Virus record (IMG/VR): IMGVR_UViG_2563366974_000015
Reading direction: 5' to 3' (one strand)
Source of the DNA: a virus
Taxonomy: Duplodnaviria; Heunggongvirae; Uroviricota; Caudoviricetes
DNA: 8,078 nucleotides
The notes under the pieces are model-generated. The model was not told the origin of the DNA. It made no database searches and was given only the letters and a program-made list of their open reading frames with translations. Below are positions 1-8,078 of this stretch, one piece after another. The translations under genes were made by a program, and so were the position numbers. Position 1 is the stretch's first letter, and the number at the start of each line of letters is the position of its first letter.

Positions 1-2301
1 GATAAGGTGTGGACCTATAACCGCAGTAATGTGGTGATGCCGGATGATGGCGCGCCGTTCCGCTACAGCTTCAGCGCCCTGAAGGACCGCCATAATGCCG
101 TTGAGGTGAACTGGATTGACCCGAACAACGGCTGGGAGACGGCGACAGAGCTTGTTGAAGATACGCAGGCCATTGCCCGTTACGGTCGTAATGTCACGAA
201 GATGGATGCCTTTGGTTGTACCAGTCGGGGGCAGGCACACCGAGCCGGGCTGTGGCTGATTAAAACGGAACTGCTGGAAACGCAGACCGTGGATTTCAGC
301 GTGGGCGCAGAAGGGCTTCGCCATGTGCCGGGCGATGTTATTGAAATCTGCGATGATGACTATGCCGGTATCAGCATCGGTGGTCGCGTGCTGGCGGTGA
401 ACAGCCAGACCCGGACGCTGACGCTCGACCGTGAAATCACGCTGCCATCCTCCGGCACCACGCTGATAAGCCTGGTTGACGGTGAGGGTAATCCGGTCAG
501 CGTGGAGGTCCAGTCCGTCACCGACGGCGTGAAGGTGAAAGTGAGCCGTGTTCCTGACGGCGTTGCTGAATACAGCGTGTGGGGGCTGAAGCTGCCGACG
601 CTGCGCCAGCGCCTGTTCCGCTGCGTGAGTATCCGTGAGAACGACGACGGCACGTATGCCATCACTGCCGTGCAGCATGTACCGGAGAAAGAGGCCATCG
701 TGGATAACGGGGCGCACTTTGACGGCGACCAGAGCGGCACGGTGAATGGTGTCACGCCGCCAGCGGTGCAGCACCTGACCGCCGAAGTCACCGCAGACAG
801 CGGGGAATATCAGGTGCTGGCGCGATGGGACACGCCGAAAGTGGTGAAGGGCGTGAGCTTCCTGCTTCGCCTTACCGTGGCAGCGGACGACGGCAGTGAG
901 CGGCTGGTCAGCATGGCCCGGACGACGGAAACCACATACCGCTTCAGGCAACTGGCGCTGGGGCGTTACACGCTGACGGTCCGGGCGGTAAATGCGTGGG
1001 GGCTGCAGGGCGATCCGGCATCGGTATCGTTCCGGATTGCGGCACCGGCAGCGCCGTCTCGTATTGAACTGATACCAGGGTATTTTCAGATAACCGCGGT
1101 CCCACATCTTGCGGTTTATGACCCGACGGTGCAGTTTGAGTTCTGGTTCTCGGAAAAACGGATTACGGATATCAGGCAGGTTGAAACCAGAGCCCGCTAT
1201 CTTGGCACGGCGCTGTACTGGATAGCCGCCAGTATCAATATCAAGCCGGGTCATGATTATTACTTTTACGTTCGCAGCGTGAACACCGTTGGCAAATCGG
1301 CATTCGTGGAGGCTGTTGGTCGGGCGAGCGATGATGCGGAAGGTTACCTGGATTTTTTCAAAGGCCAGATAACCGAATCCCATCTTGGCAAGGAGCTGCT
1401 GGAAAAAGTCGAGCTGACGGAGGATAACGCCAGCAAACTGGAGGAGTTTTCGAAAGAGTGGAAGGACGCCAGTGATAAGTGGAATGCCATGTGGGGCGTC
1501 AAAATTGAACAGACCAAAGACGGCAAACATTATGTCGCGGGTATTGGCCTCAGCATGGAGGACACGGAGGAAGGCAAACTGAGCCAGTTCCTGGTTGCCG
1601 CTAACCGTATCGCGTTTATTGATCCGTCTAATGGCAACACAAGACCAATGTTTGTTGGTCAGGGCGATCAGATATTCATGAACGACGTGTTCCTGAAACG
1701 CCTGACGGCTCCGACCATTACCAGCGGCGGTAATCCTCCGGCATTTTCCCTGACACCGGATGGGCGGCTGACGGCGAAAAATGCCGATATCAGCGGTAAC
1801 GTGAATGCGAACTCCGGGACGCTCAACAACGTCACGATTAACGAGAACTGTCGGGTTCTGGGAAAACTGTCCGCGAACCAGATTGAAGGCGATCTCGTTA
1901 AAACAGTGGGCAAAGCTTTCCCCCGGGACTCCCGTGCACCGGAACGGTGGCCATCAGGGACCATTACCGTCAGGGTTTATGACGATCAGCCGTTTGACCG
2001 GCAGATTGTTATTCCTGCAGTGGCATTCAGCGGCGCTAAACATGAGAGAGAGCATACTGATATTTACTCCTCATGCCGTCTGATAGTGCGGAAAAACGGT
2101 GCTGAAATTTATAACCGTACCGCGCTGGATAATACGCTGATTTACAGTGGCGTTATTGATATGCCTGCCGGTCACGGTCACATGACGCTGGAGTTTTCGG
2201 TGTCAGCATGGCTGGTAAATGACTGGTATCCCACAGCAAGTATCAGCGATTTGCTGGTTGTGGTGATGAAGAAAGCCACCGCAGGCATCAGTATCAGCTG
2301 A
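1..2301 (+). CDS. J: Host specificity protein J (tail tip / central fibre), C-terminal ~767 codons; 5' end lies upstream of the window
   Basis: Frame 1 is open from nt 1 (the ORF track starts at an internal GTG at 7) to TGA 2299-2301. The translation has a fibronectin-III-like stretch ([23 protein letters not shown]) and a lambda-J-like C-terminus ([32 protein letters not shown]). It sits immediately upstream of lom and stf as in lambda. Recognised from memory, no search run. Confidence 0.88.
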
Positions 2302-2320
2302 ATTTTATAACCCATATACG

Positions 2321-2347
2321 GGCGCCAGAAATGGCGCCTTTTTTATT
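2321..2347 (+). terminator. Rho-independent terminator downstream of J
   Basis: Perfect inverted repeat GGCGCC (2321-2326) / GGCGCC (2333-2338) with a 6-nt loop AGAAAT, followed by the T-run TTTTTTTATT (2339-2347). Confidence 0.6.
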
Positions 2348-2368
2348 GCAGAAAAGCGAGAGGTAATT

Positions 2369-2968
2369 ATGCGTAAAGTTTGTGCAGCCATTTTGTCCGC
2401 AGCCATTTGTCTGGCCGTATCCGGTGCGCCTGCATGGGCGTCTGAACATCAGTCCACGCTGAGCGCGGGGTATCTTCATGCCTCGACGAACGTCCCCGGC
2501 AGTGATGATCTGAACGGGATTAACGTGAAATACCGTTATGAGTTTACGGACACACTGGGGCTGGTGACGTCATTCAGCTATGCAGGAGACAAGAATCGCC
2601 AGCTGACCCGTTACAGCGATACCCGCTGGCATGAAGATTCCGTTCGTAACCGCTGGTTCAGCGTAATGGCGGGGCCGTCTGTGCGCGTGAATGAATGGTT
2701 CAGCGCGTATGCGATGGCGGGTGTAGCTTACAGCCGTGTGTCGACTTTCTCCGGGGATTATCTTCGCGTAACTGACAACAAGGGGAAAAAGCACGATGTG
2801 CTGACCGGAAGTGATGACGGTCGCCACAGCAACACGTCTCTGGCGTGGGGGGCTGGCGTGCAGTTTAACCCGACCGAATCCGTGGCCATTGATATTGCTT
2901 ATGAAGGCTCCGGCAGTGGCGACTGGCGCACTGACGGTTTCATCGTGGGTGTCGGTTATAAGTTCTGA
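2369..2968 (+). CDS. lom: Lom / Ail-family outer-membrane beta-barrel protein (prophage moron)
   Basis: 199-aa ORF with a signal-peptide-like N-terminus (MRKVCAAILSAAICLAVSGAPAWA). Shine-Dalgarno GAGAGG at 2358-2363, 5 nt before the ATG. The C-terminus VAIDIAYEGSGSGDWRTDGFIVGVGYKF matches the conserved end of lambda Lom as I recall it, and the gene is in the lambda position between J and stf. Confidence 0.88.
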   Translation: MRKVCAAILSAAICLAVSGAPAWASEHQSTLSAGYLHASTNVPGSDDLNGINVKYRYEFTDTLGLVTSFSYAGDKNRQLTRYSDTRWHEDSVRNRWFSVMAGPSVRVNEWFSAYAMAGVAYSRVSTFSGDYLRVTDNKGKKHDVLTGSDDGRHSNTSLAWGAGVQFNPTESVAIDIAYEGSGSGDWRTDGFIVGVGYKF

Positions 2969-2994
2969 TTAGCCAGGTAACACAGTGTTATGAC

Positions 2995-3022
2995 AGCCCG
3001 CCGGTTCAGGCGGGCTTTTTTG
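2995..3022 (+). terminator. Rho-independent terminator downstream of lom
   Basis: 8-bp perfect stem AGCCCGCC (2995-3002) / GGCGGGCT (3009-3016), 6-nt loop GGTTCA, followed by a T6 run ending at 3021. Confidence 0.6.
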
Positions 3023-3032
3023 TGGAGTGGAT

Positions 3033-4619
3033 ATGGCAGCAGTAAAAATCTCAGGTGTGCTGAAAGATGGTGCGGGAAAACCAATACAGAACTGCACTAT
3101 TCAACTGAAGGCAAAGCGTAACAGCACCACGGTACTGGTGAACACGGTGGCCTCTGAAAATCCGGATGAAGCCGGGCGTTACAGCATGGATGTTGAGTAT
3201 GGTCAGTACAGCGTCACCCTGCTGGTTGAAGGTTTTCCGCCTTCACATGCCGGGACCATTACCGTCTATGAAGGTTCCAGACCAGGTACGCTGAATGATT
3301 TTCTCGGTGCCATGACGGAAGATGATGTCATGCCGGAGGCATTGCGTCGTTTTGAGGCAATGGTGGAAGAAGCGGCACGCAACGCCGAAGCCGCCTCTCA
3401 GAGCGCAGCAGCGGCAAAGAAATCCGAAACTGCAGCGGCATCATCGAAGAACGCGGCGAAAACCTCAGAAACAAATGCAGCTAACAGCGCACAGGCGGCA
3501 GCGTCCTCGCAGACTGCATCGGCAAACTCCGCGACAGCAGCCAAAAAATCAGAAACCAACGCGAAAAATAGCGAGACAGCCGCAAAGACGAGCGAAACCA
3601 ACGCAAAGTCCAGCCAGACGGCAGCGAAAACCAGCGAAACGAATGCCAAAGCCAGTGAAACTGCGGCAAAAAACAGCCAGGTTGCAGCAGCCCAAAGCGA
3701 GAGCGCGGCAGCCGGTTCTGTGACTTTAGCAGCTGGATCAGCAACTGCTGCGGCTAACAGCCAGAAAGCTGCGAAGACGAGTGAAACTAACGCAAAGTCC
3801 AGCCAGACGGCAGCGAAGACCAGCGAAACGAATGCCAAAGCCAGCGAAACTGCGGCGAAAAACAGTCAGGATGCAGCAGCCCAAAGCGAGAGTGCTGCAG
3901 CCGGTTCTGCAAGCGCGGCGGCTGCTTCTGCCACTGCATCAGCCAACAGTCAAAAAGCAGCAAAAACCAGTGAAACCAACGCAAAGGTGAGCGAAACAGC
4001 GGCTGCGAACTCAGCGAAAGCATCGGCAGCAAGCCAGACGGCAGCTAAAGCAAGCGAAGATGCAGCCAGAGAGTACGCAAGCCAGGCTGCGGAGCCGTAT
4101 AAATATGTCTTACAGCCGCTGCCTGATGTGTGGATACCATTTAACGATTCACTGGATATGATTACGGGCTTTTTGCCATCATATAAAAAGATTGTTATTG
4201 GTGACGACGAAATAACGATGCCTGGCGACAAGATTGTTAAGTTTAAACGTGCATCGAAAGCAACCTATATTAACAAATCTGGTGTGCTGACAGAGGCTGC
4301 CATTGATGAGCCACGATTTGAACGTGATGGCCTGCTTATTGAGGGGCAAAGAACTAATCTTCTGCTTAATTCAACAAATCCATCTAAATGGAATAAGTCA
4401 GGCAATCTGGAACTCACAGAAATATCCACGGATTCTTTTAATTTTACTTATGGCAGATTTACTGTACAAGATTCGCTTATTGGTACGAGAAAAGCGATTA
4501 ACATCGTCAGGCTGTCTTCGAGTACAGGGGGGGATGTTACTTGTGATGAAGAAAAGGAGGTCACTATATGCTGTGGAATAAAAAGTGAAGAAGATAATAG
4601 GGGCGGTTGTATTTTATAA
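3033..4619 (+). CDS. stf: Side tail fibre protein Stf: lambda-like N-terminal attachment domain plus fibre repeats; C-terminal part appears truncated or disrupted
   Basis: ATG 3033 is preceded by GGAG at 3024-3027; the ORF track begins at an in-frame GTG at 3027. The N-terminus MAAVKISGVLKDGAGKPIQNCTIQLKAKRNSTTVLVNTVASENPDEAGRYSMDVEYGQYSV closely matches lambda Stf as remembered. The central region is Ala/Ser/Thr-rich with SETNAK-type repeats. The ORF ends at TAA 4617-4619, but the same frame reopens after a second stop (TAG 4632-4634). Confidence 0.8.
   Translation: MAAVKISGVLKDGAGKPIQNCTIQLKAKRNSTTVLVNTVASENPDEAGRYSMDVEYGQYSVTLLVEGFPPSHAGTITVYEGSRPGTLNDFLGAMTEDDVMPEALRRFEAMVEEAARNAEAASQSAAAAKKSETAAASSKNAAKTSETNAANSAQAAASSQTASANSATAAKKSETNAKNSETAAKTSETNAKSSQTAAKTSETNAKASETAAKNSQVAAAQSESAAAGSVTLAAGSATAAANSQKAAKTSETNAKSSQTAAKTSETNAKASETAAKNSQDAAAQSESAAAGSASAAAASATASANSQKAAKTSETNAKVSETAAANSAKASAASQTAAKASEDAAREYASQAAEPYKYVLQPLPDVWIPFNDSLDMITGFLPSYKKIVIGDDEITMPGDKIVKFKRASKATYINKSGVLTEAAIDEPRFERDGLLIEGQRTNLLLNSTNPSKWNKSGNLELTEISTDSFNFTYGRFTVQDSLIGTRKAINIVRLSSSTGGDVTCDEEKEVTICCGIKSEEDNRGGCIL
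3582..3909 (+). repeat. In-frame tandem direct repeat inside stf (two 139-bp copies, 189-bp period)
   Basis: Copy 1 (3582-3720) and copy 2 (3771-3909) align base for base with about ten mismatches. Both encode AAKTSETNAKSSQTAAKTSETNAKASETAAKNSQ.AAAQSESAAAGS. Shorter SETNAK-type units recur from about 3400 to 4070. Confidence 0.85.
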
Positions 4620-4805
4620 GACCATGATGGTTAGGAGGTCAGGTTTTCAGTAGGTACTGCACGCATTAACTCAACAATTGTAATTGTTAGCAATAGAAGT
4701 GATGCAGGCCGTGTTATAGCAAAGTCTGTTAAAGATGATGTAACTGGCTGGATATTTTTTGAGGCTACAATAAATGCACATAAAACAGAAAACACGGTTG
4801 GTGGG

Positions 4806-5411
4806 ATGGTTCAGTACGCTCCTGTAAAAGGTTCAGGTACAGCATCTGGAGACTATCTGGATATCGCAACTCCACAAGTGGAAGGTGGATCAAGTGCTTC
4901 GTCATTTATTGTAACTGATATAACTGCAAGCACTCGCGCAAGCGATATGGTGACAGTCCCAATCAAGAATAACCTTTATAATCTTCCTTTTACGGTTCTT
5001 TGTGAGGTACATAAGAACTGGTATAAAACGCCAAATGCAGCACCGCGTGTTTTTGATACCGGCGGTCATCAAACCGGAGCGGCTATTATTCTTGGCTTCG
5101 GTCGTTCAACAGATTACGACGGATTTCCTTATTGTGATATAGGTTTGGCTAACAGACGGGTAAACGAAAACGCATCGCTTGAAAAAATGGTTATGGGGAT
5201 GCGTGTAAAGTCAGATCAGTCTACGTGCTCAGTAAGTAACGGGCGTATATCCAGCGAAAAGAAAGCCACATGGTCCTATATTCAGAACTCCGCAATTATC
5301 CGTATTGGAGGCCAGACTACAGCCGGGTTGCGTCATTTATTTGGTCATGTCAGGAATTTCAGAATATGGCACAAGGCATTGACTGATGCTCAGATGGGGG
5401 AGTCAATCTAA
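4806..5411 (+). CDS. LamG/concanavalin-A-like domain protein; probably the detached C-terminal receptor-binding part of the tail fibre
   Basis: 201-aa ORF from ATG 4806, but the same frame is stop-free back to 4635 with no canonical start codon in that stretch, and it is the stf frame. The C-terminal signature IRIGGQTTAGLRHLFGHVRNFRIWHKALTDAQM is typical of LamG-like jelly-roll lectin domains. The ribosome-binding site at 4806 is weak (GGTTGGTGGG directly abutting the ATG). Low-GC region. Confidence 0.5.
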   Translation: MVQYAPVKGSGTASGDYLDIATPQVEGGSSASSFIVTDITASTRASDMVTVPIKNNLYNLPFTVLCEVHKNWYKTPNAAPRVFDTGGHQTGAAIILGFGRSTDYDGFPYCDIGLANRRVNENASLEKMVMGMRVKSDQSTCSVSNGRISSEKKATWSYIQNSAIIRIGGQTTAGLRHLFGHVRNFRIWHKALTDAQMGESI

Positions 5412-5692
5412 TGAAAGATTTAACACTCAAATTTGCAGACAGGGCCGACTTTTCGGCCTTTATGGATAGCATTGGCTATTATGATGACGAGTCGATGCAG
5501 GATGATATTCTTATTGACGTGATAGGTAACGTGTACAAAGAAACCGGAGAACTGACTGAAGATGGCGAACCGGTATGTGTTAAGGAAGATGGATATTTTG
5601 TAAACGTGCGCATCATTAATGATGCAAAAAAATCGTTAATATTCGATGAATACGCGGTTGTAGTTGAACATCAACTTCGTGGCTGGATGTGA
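5411..5692 (+). CDS. Hypothetical small acidic protein (93 aa); possible tip-specific assembly factor
   Basis: The start overlaps the upstream stop by one base (TAATG at 5409-5413), suggesting translational coupling. Acidic composition (many D/E). No family recognised. Confidence 0.55.
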   Translation: MKDLTLKFADRADFSAFMDSIGYYDDESMQDDILIDVIGNVYKETGELTEDGEPVCVKEDGYFVNVRIINDAKKSLIFDEYAVVVEHQLRGWM

Positions 5693-5701
5693 GGGAGACA
5701 A

Positions 5702-6406
5702 ATGGCTACATCGACAGTAATTCCAGGAGACATCACCACGTTAAAGGGAGATGTCAGTAAAGCCAAGGAAGATATTTCCTCAATTAACGGAAAAGTATCA
5801 ACGCTTCAGGCTGATATGACCAGTGCAAAGCAGGATATCAGCACCAGATACACAAAAACTGAAGTTGATAATAAGCTGAAAAACAAACTGGAAGTGAACG
5901 CTCTGGAAAGCGGTCGTTATGGTGGAGATTTTTACCCGTTGACTGGCCGTGAAGCGTTTTATTTGTGGGGATTGGGCACGACTACAGCGGCGGCAAACCT
6001 TTATCTTAATCCTGACCCCGCAATTTCGTCTGTGCTGCGGTCAACATCGTCTATCCGCTATAAACATTCAGTAGAGACAATAGATTCAGAGCACGCCGAT
6101 CTCATTTTCAGGATGCGCCCTGTGTGGTACAGGTCACAATGCGAAAATGACAGGCGTGACTGGGGATTCTACGGATTGATTGCCGAGGAAGTAGGAGAAA
6201 TTGCCCCTCAGTTTGTACACTGGCGACCAGCTAACGAAGATGATGCACCGGAAGCTATTTCCAGCAATGGCCTTGTTGCCGAAGGTGTAATGTACGAACG
6301 TCTGGTTGTTCCACTGATTCACCATATCCAGAAGCTGACTGAAAGAGTTGATGAACTTGAGTCAGAATTAAAGTTGTTATCCGTTTCCCGAAGCGATATC
6401 GGATAA
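5702..6406 (+). CDS. Short tail-fibre-like protein: N-terminal coiled-coil segment plus C-terminal intramolecular chaperone (peptidase S74-like) domain
   Basis: Shine-Dalgarno GAGGGAG at 5691-5697 precedes ATG 5702. Candidate catalytic Ser-x-x-Arg-x-Lys motif SSIRYK (residues 116-121, nt 6047-6064), followed by WGFYGLIAEEVGEIAPQFVHW and GLVAEGVMYERLVVPLIHHIQKLTERVDELESEL, which match the conserved blocks of self-cleaving C-terminal chaperone domains of phage fibres and spikes (endosialidase / T5 L-shaped fibre type). The N-terminal region has heptad-like spacing. Confidence 0.72.
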   Translation: MATSTVIPGDITTLKGDVSKAKEDISSINGKVSTLQADMTSAKQDISTRYTKTEVDNKLKNKLEVNALESGRYGGDFYPLTGREAFYLWGLGTTTAAANLYLNPDPAISSVLRSTSSIRYKHSVETIDSEHADLIFRMRPVWYRSQCENDRRDWGFYGLIAEEVGEIAPQFVHWRPANEDDAPEAISSNGLVAEGVMYERLVVPLIHHIQKLTERVDELESELKLLSVSRSDIG

Positions 6407-6416
6407 AGGAGGAGTA

Positions 6417-6710
6417 ATGGATATAACACCTTTCCTTCATGCGCTTTGTGCTGTGGCTGCGCAGCTACTGATTGGTCTTTTTACCGGGAACTGGGCTTAC
6501 GGGGCGATAGCTGGTTGTACGTTCTTCATTGCGCGTGAACACACCCAGGCAGAATATCGCTGGATTGAAATGTTCGGGCATGGCAAGCGAATGAATATGC
6601 CGTGGTGGGGCGGTTTTGATCCGCGCGCGTGGGATGTGGCAAGCCTGATGGATTTTGCTGTGCCGGTGGTGGCGTGTCTGCTGGTCTGGCTGTTGGTTAA
6701 TCGTGGGTGA
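6417..6710 (+). CDS. Hypothetical small inner-membrane protein (97 aa, 2-3 predicted transmembrane segments)
   Basis: Strong Shine-Dalgarno AGGAGGAG at 6407-6414 before ATG 6417. Hydrophobic stretches FLHALCAVAAQLLIGLFTGNWAYGAIAGCTFFIA and LMDFAVPVVACLLVWLLV flank a charged loop. GC content is higher than in the upstream cassette. Confidence 0.55.
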   Translation: MDITPFLHALCAVAAQLLIGLFTGNWAYGAIAGCTFFIAREHTQAEYRWIEMFGHGKRMNMPWWGGFDPRAWDVASLMDFAVPVVACLLVWLLVNRG

Positions 6711-6720
6711 AAAAAGGTGA

Positions 6721-6840
6721 GCTGTATATGCAACGGAGGAAGAAACCTCGTTGCTGGAAGCCTGGAAGAAGTATCGGGTGTTGCTGAACCGTGTTGATAC
6801 GTCAACTGCACAGGATATTGAATGGCCAGCACTGCCGTAG
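6721..6840 (+). pseudogene. tfa: 3' remnant of the tail fibre assembly gene tfa (last ~39 codons, no start codon)
   Basis: The frame opens just after TGA 6718-6720 and reads [39 protein letters not shown], ending at TAG 6838-6840. This matches the conserved C-terminal end of lambda-type Tfa proteins as I recall it. No upstream coding sequence or start codon is present. Confidence 0.7.
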
Positions 6841-6937
6841 GGTAAAACATATAAATTCTATAATTAGATGTATCTTTCCATTTACGGCAAGGAAGGGGGC
6901 TTGGAAGACGTAAAGCATCTCACACCGAGATTATTTT

Positions 6938-7528
6938 TTATATGTCAGGTGTCTGAAGTTTTGCTTTGGCTCTTAAAATGGTTTGCCGCGAGGTTTTGAA
7001 TTCCCGGGCAATGGCACTTATACTTACACCTGACTTAATTCGTTCGAATACCACCTGTTTCTGTTCTTCATTTAACACAGGTGGTCGACCAAAACGTTTC
7101 CCTGCGCCGCTGGCTCTTACTATCCCGGAATGAGTGCGTTCAAGTAAAAGGTCTCGTTCAAATTCAGCGACTGCTGAAATTACGTGCATCATCATTTTTC
7201 CTGTTGGACTGGTCAGGTCAATGCCCCCCAATGCTAAGCAATGCACTCTGATACCTGTTTCGGTCAGTTGTTCCACTGTTTTCCTGATATCCATTGCATT
7301 ACAACCAAGGCGATCCAGTTTTGTCACAATCAATTGATCACCACATTTCAGGCGAGCAAGCAACCGGTTAAAACCAGGACGCTCACTGGTTGCTGCTGAG
7401 CCGCTAATGTGTTCTTCGATTATTTGCTGAGGTTTGATTTTAAAACCTGCACTTTCGATTTCCCGGCGTTGATTTTCGGTGGTCTGATCCAGCGTTGATA
7501 TCCGACAGTAAGCAAAAATTCGAGACAT
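6938..7528 (-). CDS. pin: Serine recombinase of the DNA-invertase/resolvase family (Pin-type, as found beside tail-fibre genes in Rac/Qin prophages)
   Basis: 196-aa ORF with N-terminal catalytic-serine motif [13 protein letters not shown], the KLDRLG motif and a C-terminal helix-turn-helix ([19 protein letters not shown]). Length and sequence match my recollection of PinR/PinQ. It is convergent with the fibre genes and adjacent to the tfa remnant. Confidence 0.88.
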
Positions 7529-7844
7529 AGTGAGACTCTATACGAAATTGGTGTTCATATCATAATGCATCTCAGAAAATAATTTTGATTATTTTTGTGC
7601 ATATTTGTATGTACACGTTCGAAAATAAACGAATGCGTATGCAACCCCGTAACTTTGGTGAGACCCAAAATCGATTTTGTGAAAAATGGCTTTAACTCGG
7701 TTTGTTTTTCGAGTTCCGGGCGGACTCAAGGAAGAAGAATAGTGTTGCGTGTTATTTTAACCAGATTTCAAGTTGTTTGGTCGTGGAAAAGTGGAGCAAA
7801 ATGTTGTTAAAGTGGAAAAATGATAAAAAAGTAAGTTTATTATA

Positions 7845-8078
7845 TTACATTTTACCATTTAAATTTTGGTTGTCTTTAAGAACTGATATCGCTGTTTGTA
7901 ATAATTCTTTGTTATCCAGCCATGACTTTTTCTTTATGTTTCCTTCAATGTAATCAAGCAATGTTCTGGTATTGATAGGTCTTCCCTGTTTTGCTACTTC
8001 CACGACAGCATCTCCCAGGATAATTCTGACTTCAGGAAGCTGCGCAGGGAACCACTTTAGGGTGTCTTTTGATTTCAT
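7845..8078 (-). CDS. ynaE: YnaE/YdfK-family prophage protein (function unknown; cold-shock-associated in E. coli K-12)
   Basis: 77-aa ORF MKSKDTLKWFPAQLPEVRIILGDAVVEVAKQGRPINTRTLLDYIEGNIKKKSWLDNKELLQTAISVLKDNQNLNGKM, essentially the YnaE/YdfK sequence as remembered. It lies next to pin as in Rac and Qin. The start codon is at the window edge, so upstream signals cannot be seen. Confidence 0.75.
   Translation of the reverse strand: MKSKDTLKWFPAQLPEVRIILGDAVVEVAKQGRPINTRTLLDYIEGNIKKKSWLDNKELLQTAISVLKDNQNLNGKM

Follow-up and report, generated by a model that had tools for sequence, protein, structure and literature searches.

A tfa 3′ remnant as the probable right homology arm of a side-fibre cassette shared among Escherichia lambdoid prophages

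Background

The exchange of tail fibre modules through conserved flanking sequences is textbook lambdoid mosaicism, already known and backed by experiment. In the mosaic boundaries, or 'HR traces', described by De Paepe et al. 2014 (PMC3945230), partial homology that was already present borders the exchanged block, and one third of the recombinants obtained in lambda x Rac crosses had crossed over in tfa (PMC3945230). The same work places the minimal efficient pairing segment at 23-27 bp for Red-beta and at 31-34 bp for RecA (PMC3945230). Tfa is itself modular, with a variable N-terminal fibre-binding domain and a conserved C-terminal helical domain (PMC9608196), and the conservation of the latter explains why the 3′ end of tfa is the part of the gene that is shared at the DNA level. 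Site-specific inversion provides another described route to fibre variation. Passages of PMC3945230 that cite Sandmeier 1994 ascribe old stf exchanges to invertases, as does PMC4134206.

In this work we analyze a stretch of 8,078 nucleotides (hereafter, the window) corresponding to IMG/VR virus record IMGVR_UViG_2563366974_000015, which is the right arm of a lambdoid Escherichia coli prophage. A previous sequence-only reading of the window had singled out a short Tfa-like fragment near its right end, interpreting it as a recombination linker that marks the right-hand boundary of a fibre-module swap. The locus resembles the lambdoid mosaic boundaries outlined above in that earlier partial homology borders the exchanged block, but it departs from them in that one flank has shrunk to a gene fragment of ~110 nt that travels with the cassette, and the evidence we put forward is comparative, whereas that of PMC3945230 is experimental. 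As in the invertible segments of Mu (Gin), P1 (Cin), e14 (Pin) and p15B (Min), a Pin-type invertase adjoins fibre and tfa genes; unlike those systems, the locus shows neither 26-bp crossover sites nor inverted Sv′/U′ copies, and the remnant lies in direct orientation.

Methods

The K-12 Rac locus (stfR-tfaR-pinR) and the Qin-type locus of strain 190 (stf-tfaQ-pinQ) were used as intact references for the definition of breakpoints. Homology was assessed with blastn, tblastn, MAFFT alignment and profile searches, and the parameters of each search are given with its outcome. Coordinates refer to the window unless otherwise stated, and compared loci are designated by the letter L and a number where they need to be told apart.

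Results

The features of the window are compiled in Table 1. The closest complete genomes are those of E. coli S88, APEC O1 and their relatives, which share 98.0% identity with the window overall and 100% across the tfa remnant. The fibre cassette has a GC content of 39-47%, as against 52-63% in J, and its distal Stf portion contains a GTA head-spike-fibre-like domain. The 93-aa and 97-aa proteins yielded no sequence matches in Pfam, NCBIfam or PDB.

Table 1. Coordinates of the features discussed in the text; the last rows refer to other prophage loci, each in its own coordinates.
Feature	Position	Strand	Basis or content
J, C-terminal part	7-2301		
lom	2369-2968		
stf	3033-5411		
Stf N-terminal domain, conserved	3033-3424	+	PF08400
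Fibre cassette, putatively Tfa-independent	3425-6717	+	distal Stf, 93-aa, 234-aa and 97-aa genes
93-aa gene	5411-5692		
234-aa fibre protein	5702-6406		Peptidase_S74 intramolecular chaperone domain
97-aa predicted membrane protein	6417-6710	+	phrog_1443
Junction filler	6698-6717	+	last four codons and stop of 97-aa gene, A6 run
tfa 3′ remnant (pseudogene fragment)	~6718-6840	+	PF02413 match; alignments to tfaR, tfaQ, lambda tfa
TGA in frame, within tfa-like GAGCTG DNA	6718-6720	+	read out of frame
Right homology arm, shared with intact tfaQ/tfaR-pin-ydfK loci	6730-8078	+	99.2% vs strain 190; 98.8% vs K-12 Rac
pin, serine DNA invertase (PinQ/PinR type), convergent with remnant	6938-7528	-	Pfam Resolvase and HTH_7; phrog_125
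ydfK	7845-8078		
Tandem tfa fragments, L006	6430-6537, 7407-7552		
Tandem tfa fragments, L007	6315-6422, 7292-7471		
Tandem tfa fragments, L009	4987-5121, 5716-5808, 6457-6528		
Tandem tfa fragments, L083	5993-6205		

Positions 6721-6840 consist of 39 sense codons (6721-6837, reading GCT GTA TAT GCA ACG ... CTG CCG) followed by a TAG at 6838-6840. The encoded peptide matches the Caudo_TAP family (PF02413) over profile positions 95-130 of 131 with a score of 61.8 bits (E 9.5e-17; gathering cut-off 22.1 bits), several PHROG tail-fibre-assembly families at their C-terminal ends, and Mu TfaU (PDB 5YVQ_B) over residues 142-174 of 175 (E 5.5e-5), bearing out the earlier proposal that this translation should align to Tfa C-termini. 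Compared with the known members of the family (lambda Tfa, TfaR, TfaQ and Mu U), it aligns to the extreme C-terminus, with 36 of 36 residues identical to TfaQ of strain 190 and ~97% identity to K-12 TfaR over the aligned part. The remnant has the family-profile match but, unlike complete family members (~175-195 aa), it is devoid of the ~155-residue N-terminal fibre-binding domain, of a ribosome-binding site and of an intact ORF with a start codon, neither ATG nor GTG being present in its Tfa frame; it can therefore not be a functional Tfa. It is a non-coding scar that yields no protein of its own, and it is already known: on the identical sequence of E. coli S88 (6730-6840), PGAP calls a 'tail fiber assembly protein' that is incomplete and missing its N-terminus, and RefSeq annotates it as a tfa pseudogene. 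In the head of the remnant, relatives show replacement of the conserved Trp by R or by L, an L to R change and one 1-nt deletion variant, and these pseudogene-type changes, together with the truncation of its tail at 6786 in phage 21, indicate a sequence apparently free of protein constraint.

Searches for the remainder of the gene support the view that only the last ~39 codons of a Tfa-like gene are left, as a recombination scar and not as the decayed remains of a full gene. Full-length TfaQ matched the window by tblastn (E up to 10, word size 2) at 6730-6837 only, and three 5′ parts of tfa gave nothing but chance matches of 10-16 nt across the whole window by blastn (word size 7, E up to 10). 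The ORFs upstream of the remnant returned no Caudo_TAP match in the Pfam search, and no frame-shifted continuation of tfa was found upstream of the remnant in the window. The sequence-only reading was likewise accurate in describing a fragment with no start codon and a stop directly upstream in the same frame, its left coordinate holding to within 3 nt of the true edge. The 5′ edge of the remnant comprises a scrambled stretch at 6725-6729 that is 1 nt shorter than its tfa counterpart, and it is because this 1-nt deletion shifts the upstream tfa-like DNA that the TGA comes to stand in the remnant frame. Other tfa remnants, found behind a long S74-type Stf in strains C11 and 1EC187, already align with the window at 6718 (TGAGCTG), a 1-nt indel intervening at ~6725-6729, which probably places the beginning of the tfa-derived DNA at about 6718.

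Fragments of this kind are also found elsewhere in E. coli prophages (L006, L007, L009 and L083), where they again consist of only the 3′ end of tfa, lie at module or moron boundaries and are annotated by PGAP as 'incomplete, missing N-terminus'. K-12 fragments such as tfaX and tfaD are further C-terminal tfa pseudogene fragments. The left breakpoints of the prophage fragments differ (tfaQ nt about 406-409, 418, 440 and 466) and hence correspond to separate truncation events; unlike these other fragments, the junction type of the window is the one tied to the 97-aa gene. Several prophage right arms contain two or three tfa 3′ fragments of unequal length in tandem (Table 1), with cargo such as a SAM methyltransferase or dinI-like fragments between them, an arrangement that suggests serial insertions or replacements, each of them by way of a tfa 3′ end.

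Comparison with the intact Rac and Qin loci delimits the exchanged segment on both sides. On the left, homology extends over J, lom and the first ~130 codons of stf with 88-92% identity, ending at 3424, which is the end of the conserved Stf N-terminal domain. On the right, ungapped identity sets in sharply at 6729/6730, and homology then extends over pin and ydfK as far as the last position of the window, at 98.8% identity to K-12 Rac and 99.2% to strain 190. Relative to strain 190, the window hence displays the pattern of a mosaic boundary, with 1-3424 shared, 3425-6729 unmatched and 6730-8078 shared, and the intervening 3.3 kb take the place of distal stf together with the initial ~465 nt of tfa. 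This agrees with the earlier description of a foreign cassette abutting the fragment: a non-homologous cassette runs from 3425 to ~6729, and homology to intact Rac- and Qin-type loci resumes within the tfa 3′ end. The cassette of phage IdasGreatGrand, in which tfa sequence is wholly absent, provides a view of the cassette side of the junction. Its homology to the window ends at 6695-6697 by both blastn and alignment, leaving ~20 nt of junction filler that include the last four codons of the 97-aa gene, and this filler is homologous neither to the IdasGreatGrand cassette nor to tfa. No convincing case of microhomology was found at 6698-6729; MAFFT set GGCTGTTG (window ~6690-6697) opposite GACTGTTG of a longer remnant, but the match is very short.

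The exact 30-nt junction (6717-6746) is present in 69 IMG/VR contigs, a set picked by this very pattern that includes related genomes and in which counts of contexts do not amount to counts of independent events. It also occurs in cultured phages, phage 21 and Tritos among them, and the scan of species-representative genomes returned a single match, in Escherichia ruysiae, so that the junction type appears to be confined to Escherichia. The arrangement of cassette, remnant and pin, defined as coverage of at least 80% of window positions 6300-7100, is found in 458 of 5,426 complete E. coli genomes. The junction is always immediately preceded by the 97-aa gene, and over the 300 nt before it most of the 79 junction-bearing loci compared show an identity of 95% or more; farther upstream the cassette varies, the 234-aa gene being swapped for a 346-aa one or missing altogether (phage 21). 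The comparison shows the left junction to have a single origin. Downstream of this one junction there are at least 11 mutually unrelated contexts, among them pin-ydfK, a SAM methyltransferase and sitABCD (in which the remnant is cut at 6786), and the remnant tails behind it comprise at least 10 natural, in-frame Tfa C-terminal types, such as EWPALP, EWPTNPVRE, TEWPEEPDTM, EWLIQP, EWPVIPEV and EWPAAPIG, each ending at a stop codon.

In phage 21 (L011, 5180-5239) and in related prophages (L008, 6327-6386), the cut remnant ends after KKYRVLL and abuts the sitABCD iron/manganese transporter operon, which lies on the opposite strand; a cargo insertion therefore landed within the remnant in these loci.

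Within the remnant, the 3′ tail covaries with the downstream context and the head covaries with the cassette, and the exact head haplotype of the window occurs in five different contexts. Nucleotide diversity among junction-bearing loci rises from 0.04 at 6717-6786 to 0.34 at 6787-6840 and to 0.58 downstream of the remnant, and four-gamete tests are violated, with all four combinations observed for 6768 x 6801 and for 6748 x 6768. The diversity step and the four-gamete violations together show the imprint of repeated homologous crossovers, whose breakpoints fall inside the ~110-nt patch (roughly 6748-6801).

Counterparts among tfa loci can be recognized for three of the downstream contexts. 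For the pin context, loci with intact stf and tfa (Rac, Qin) share the right flank from the first nucleotide of the remnant; for the methyltransferase context, UTME-9, which has intact Stf and Tfa, shares the flank from the start of the remnant with 99.7% identity; and for an O157:H7 context, 94.3% identity beginning at that nucleotide is seen with loci that bear the annotation 'tail fiber assembly protein'. The variable tails retain the Tfa frame and the conserved D-I-E-W-P motif, from which it follows that they evolved in functional tfa genes and were gained by recombination, not by pseudogene drift. Runs of perfect identity between remnant and intact alleles span 32-132 nt, and the remnant aligns without mismatch to lambda tfa DNA over 64 nt. 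These runs exceed the minimal efficient pairing segments given above, and are hence long enough for recombination. In the window itself only two SNPs, at 6750 and 6768, separate cassette-type from tfaQ-type sequence, and the crossover in this lineage is therefore only loosely placed; it would lie at 6769-6800 if the donor was of the methyltransferase type.

The stf gene of the window contains two in-frame stops, TAA at 4617-4619 and TAG at 4632-4634, both within a 361-nt patch (4454-4814) with 109 differences from S88 and no indels. At each of these sites the patch has the base of the natural allele of strain WP8-S18-ESBL-07 (L085), and the remaining 89 informative sites agree with S88; the two alleles alternate at intervals of one to three informative sites, and the best match to the patch in any complete E. 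coli genome does not exceed 75.9% identity. Most likely, judging from this interleaving, the patch is a consensus artefact (a chimera of two collapsed prophage fibre alleles arising in assembly or polishing) or reflects a mixed population, and is not a real pseudogene. Hypermutation of the DGR type was considered and rejected for 4454-4814, given that the substitutions are not adenine-specific and that every variant base is that of a second natural allele. The patch has no bearing on the remnant finding.

Several further observations concern the cassette and its surroundings. Among natural phages and prophages, a sharply bounded hypervariable block in stf (window ~4373-4843) stands out in genes that are otherwise 90-97% identical (L012, L013, L005, L011); it falls inside the match to NCBIfam NF048003, 'phage head spike fiber domain' (Stf residues 435-636), and presumably constitutes the receptor-contacting part of the fibre. 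The Ala/Ser/Thr-rich region of Stf at ~3450-4100 ('AAKTSETNAKxSxTAA...') contains internal direct repeats that produce off-diagonal blast matches between loci and vary in copy number among relatives. The 97-aa predicted membrane protein is always the last gene of the cassette, also in phage 21, where it is annotated as 'putative membrane protein', and in the tfa-free IdasGreatGrand; candidate roles are lysogenic conversion, exclusion and fibre assembly. After its ORF, the stretch TGA-AAAAAG-GTGA (6708-6720; one G fewer in locus L006) contains an A AAA AAG heptamer that resembles a -1 slippery site but lies past the stop, and as translation in either alternative frame would end by 6720 or shortly afterwards, the heptamer is without effect on coding. 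A frameshift fusion of the remnant to the 97-aa ORF was rejected as well: the Tfa frame is +1 relative to this ORF, a slip at GGG-TGA stops at 6718 after 4 codons and the A6 run lies past the stop. The Pin-type gene is an 'orphan' invertase, as in Rac and Qin, with no recognisable 26-bp site or invertible segment in the 8-kb window. No Chi site was found.

Discussion

Our analysis suggests that the remnant is the dead 3′ end of a tfa gene that was created by an ancestral illegitimate join and now acts as the right homology arm of the cassette through crossovers inside it, an interpretation that we regard as likely. In this join, a side-fibre cassette independent of the chaperone would have become attached by its end to tfa at about nt 465, with loss of the fibre-binding N-terminal domain of Tfa. 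The joined cassette would have comprised the distal part of Stf, the 93-aa gene, optionally an S74-type fibre, and the 97-aa membrane gene. The surviving ~110 nt, nearly identical to the intact tfa 3′ ends of many lambdoid prophages, would constitute the right arm, the left one being formed by J, lom and the conserved N-terminal domain of Stf. Host or phage homologous recombination of the RecA or Red/RecT type, the enzymes being our conjecture, would then repeatedly have moved the cassette between backbones, or backbones onto the cassette; in the window, the right-hand backbone is the Qin/Rac-type tfa-pin-ydfK arm. We infer that Tfa is dispensable for the cassette from the presence of the S74 self-chaperoning domain and from the existence of a cassette phage without any tfa (IdasGreatGrand).

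Alternative origins of the fragment make different predictions about the DNA around it. Decay in place of a full-length tfa, with its upstream part overwritten by drift, would be compatible with the pseudogene state of the fragment, with the relaxed constraint in its relatives and with the 1-nt indel at its 5′ edge. The 294 nt directly upstream, however, are an intact, phage-conserved 97-aa ORF (phrog_1443) unrelated to Tfa, neither tblastn nor sensitive blastn detects tfa 5′ similarity in the window, and the breakpoint is sharp to the nucleotide, with 99% identity on its right, leaving this account with a negligible chance of being correct. The complete serine invertase gene located 97 nt downstream, on the opposite strand, makes it conceivable that Pin built the junction by site-specific recombination and that the edge of the remnant is a former crossover site, as proposed for fibre exchange in the inversion systems of Mu, P1, e14 and p15B. 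Yet the identical junction is found beside the SAM methyltransferase or sitABCD with no invertase, phage 21 included, and nothing similar to the 26-bp crossover consensus was detected in the window, AAACCNNGGTTT having no match near the remnant when up to two mismatches are allowed. A 16-position pattern for the 26-bp crossover sites (TTNNCNNAAACCNNGGTTTNNGNNAA, up to three mismatches) gave 0 matches, the crossover core motif matched at chance level and nowhere close to the remnant, and the search for inverted fibre or tfa duplicates returned only four chance inverted repeats of 16-17 nt in 2900-7700. We consequently deem an invertase origin exceedingly unlikely.

Other explanations accept the truncation and differ on what became of the fragment. 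It may have been kept for a function, as a small peptide (for instance, a 29-aa helical Tfa C-domain read from an in-frame TTG at 6751), as a frameshift extension of the 97-aa protein or as a transcriptional or RNA element. The remnant is indeed widespread, its first 70 nt are well conserved (pi 0.04), a GGAGG at 6735-6739 precedes the TTG, and beyond the 97-aa stop there is an A-rich run (6710-6716) of slippery appearance. Against this, the spacing from GGAGG to TTG is 11 nt, no in-frame ATG or GTG is available, and a +1 shift at GGG-TGA runs into the TGA at 6718 after no more than 4 extra residues. Many copies have another residue in place of the conserved Trp, the viable phage 21 has lost the tail, neither a terminator-like site (6350-7650) nor an Rfam family (whole window) was found, and recent common descent, together with gene conversion from intact tfa, accounts for the conserved head; a retained function is on this evidence very improbable. 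The fragment might also be a purely passive scar of one ancient event, with later shuffling of contexts by crossovers elsewhere. The single origin of the left junction accords with such a scar, and so does the right arm of the window, which is 99% identical to tfaQ-pin loci over 1.35 kb and could here have been acquired by a crossover farther to the right. But tails follow context and heads follow the cassette, identical heads occur with up to five contexts, four-gamete violations lie between 6768 and 6801, and the unrelated downstream contexts (pi 0.58) imply that there is no shared homology to the right of the remnant in which such crossovers could take place. We therefore hold a passive scar to be improbable, and favour a remnant that acts as the right homology arm of the cassette.

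This interpretation upholds the sequence-only reading, with two refinements. The use of the tfa 3′ end as a recombination linker is corroborated by the combination of one left junction with at least 11 contexts, at least 10 tails and four-gamete violations. The fragment had also been taken to mark the right-hand boundary of the exchange, and homology does resume there; its left edge (6718-6730), nonetheless, is a single old and presumably illegitimate join that travels with the cassette. Being found also in phage 21, in Tritos and in hundreds of genomes, this edge records no event particular to this prophage, and the crossovers that moved the cassette between backbones map to the interior of the remnant (roughly 6748-6801) and not to this edge. 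A stronger proposition, that the tfa 3′ end is a portable 'recombination handle' retained because the cassettes that carry it spread, seems to us doubtful.

Conclusions

The remnant reveals no new mechanism; the gain is one of resolution, with one junction, at least 11 backbones and crossovers inside ~70 nt. It explains at nucleotide resolution the spread of one apparently Tfa-independent side-fibre cassette family among Escherichia lambdoid backbones, including Qin/Rac-type backbones, DLP12-type backbones with the methyltransferase, and sit-carrying phages such as phage 21. For annotation, it carries the warning that a short 'tail fiber assembly' call at this site should be read as a scar and not as a gene. 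The ~110-nt patch and the Stf N-terminal domain also constitute natural homology arms for swaps of receptor-binding modules in lambda-like phages. If the handle proposition were true, any fibre module ending in these ~110 nt could be inserted by homologous recombination into any tfa-bearing lambdoid backbone, with no need for the module to depend on Tfa, and the sequence coding for the Tfa C-domain would be a near-universal right-hand adaptor for the exchange of receptor-binding modules among Escherichia prophages.
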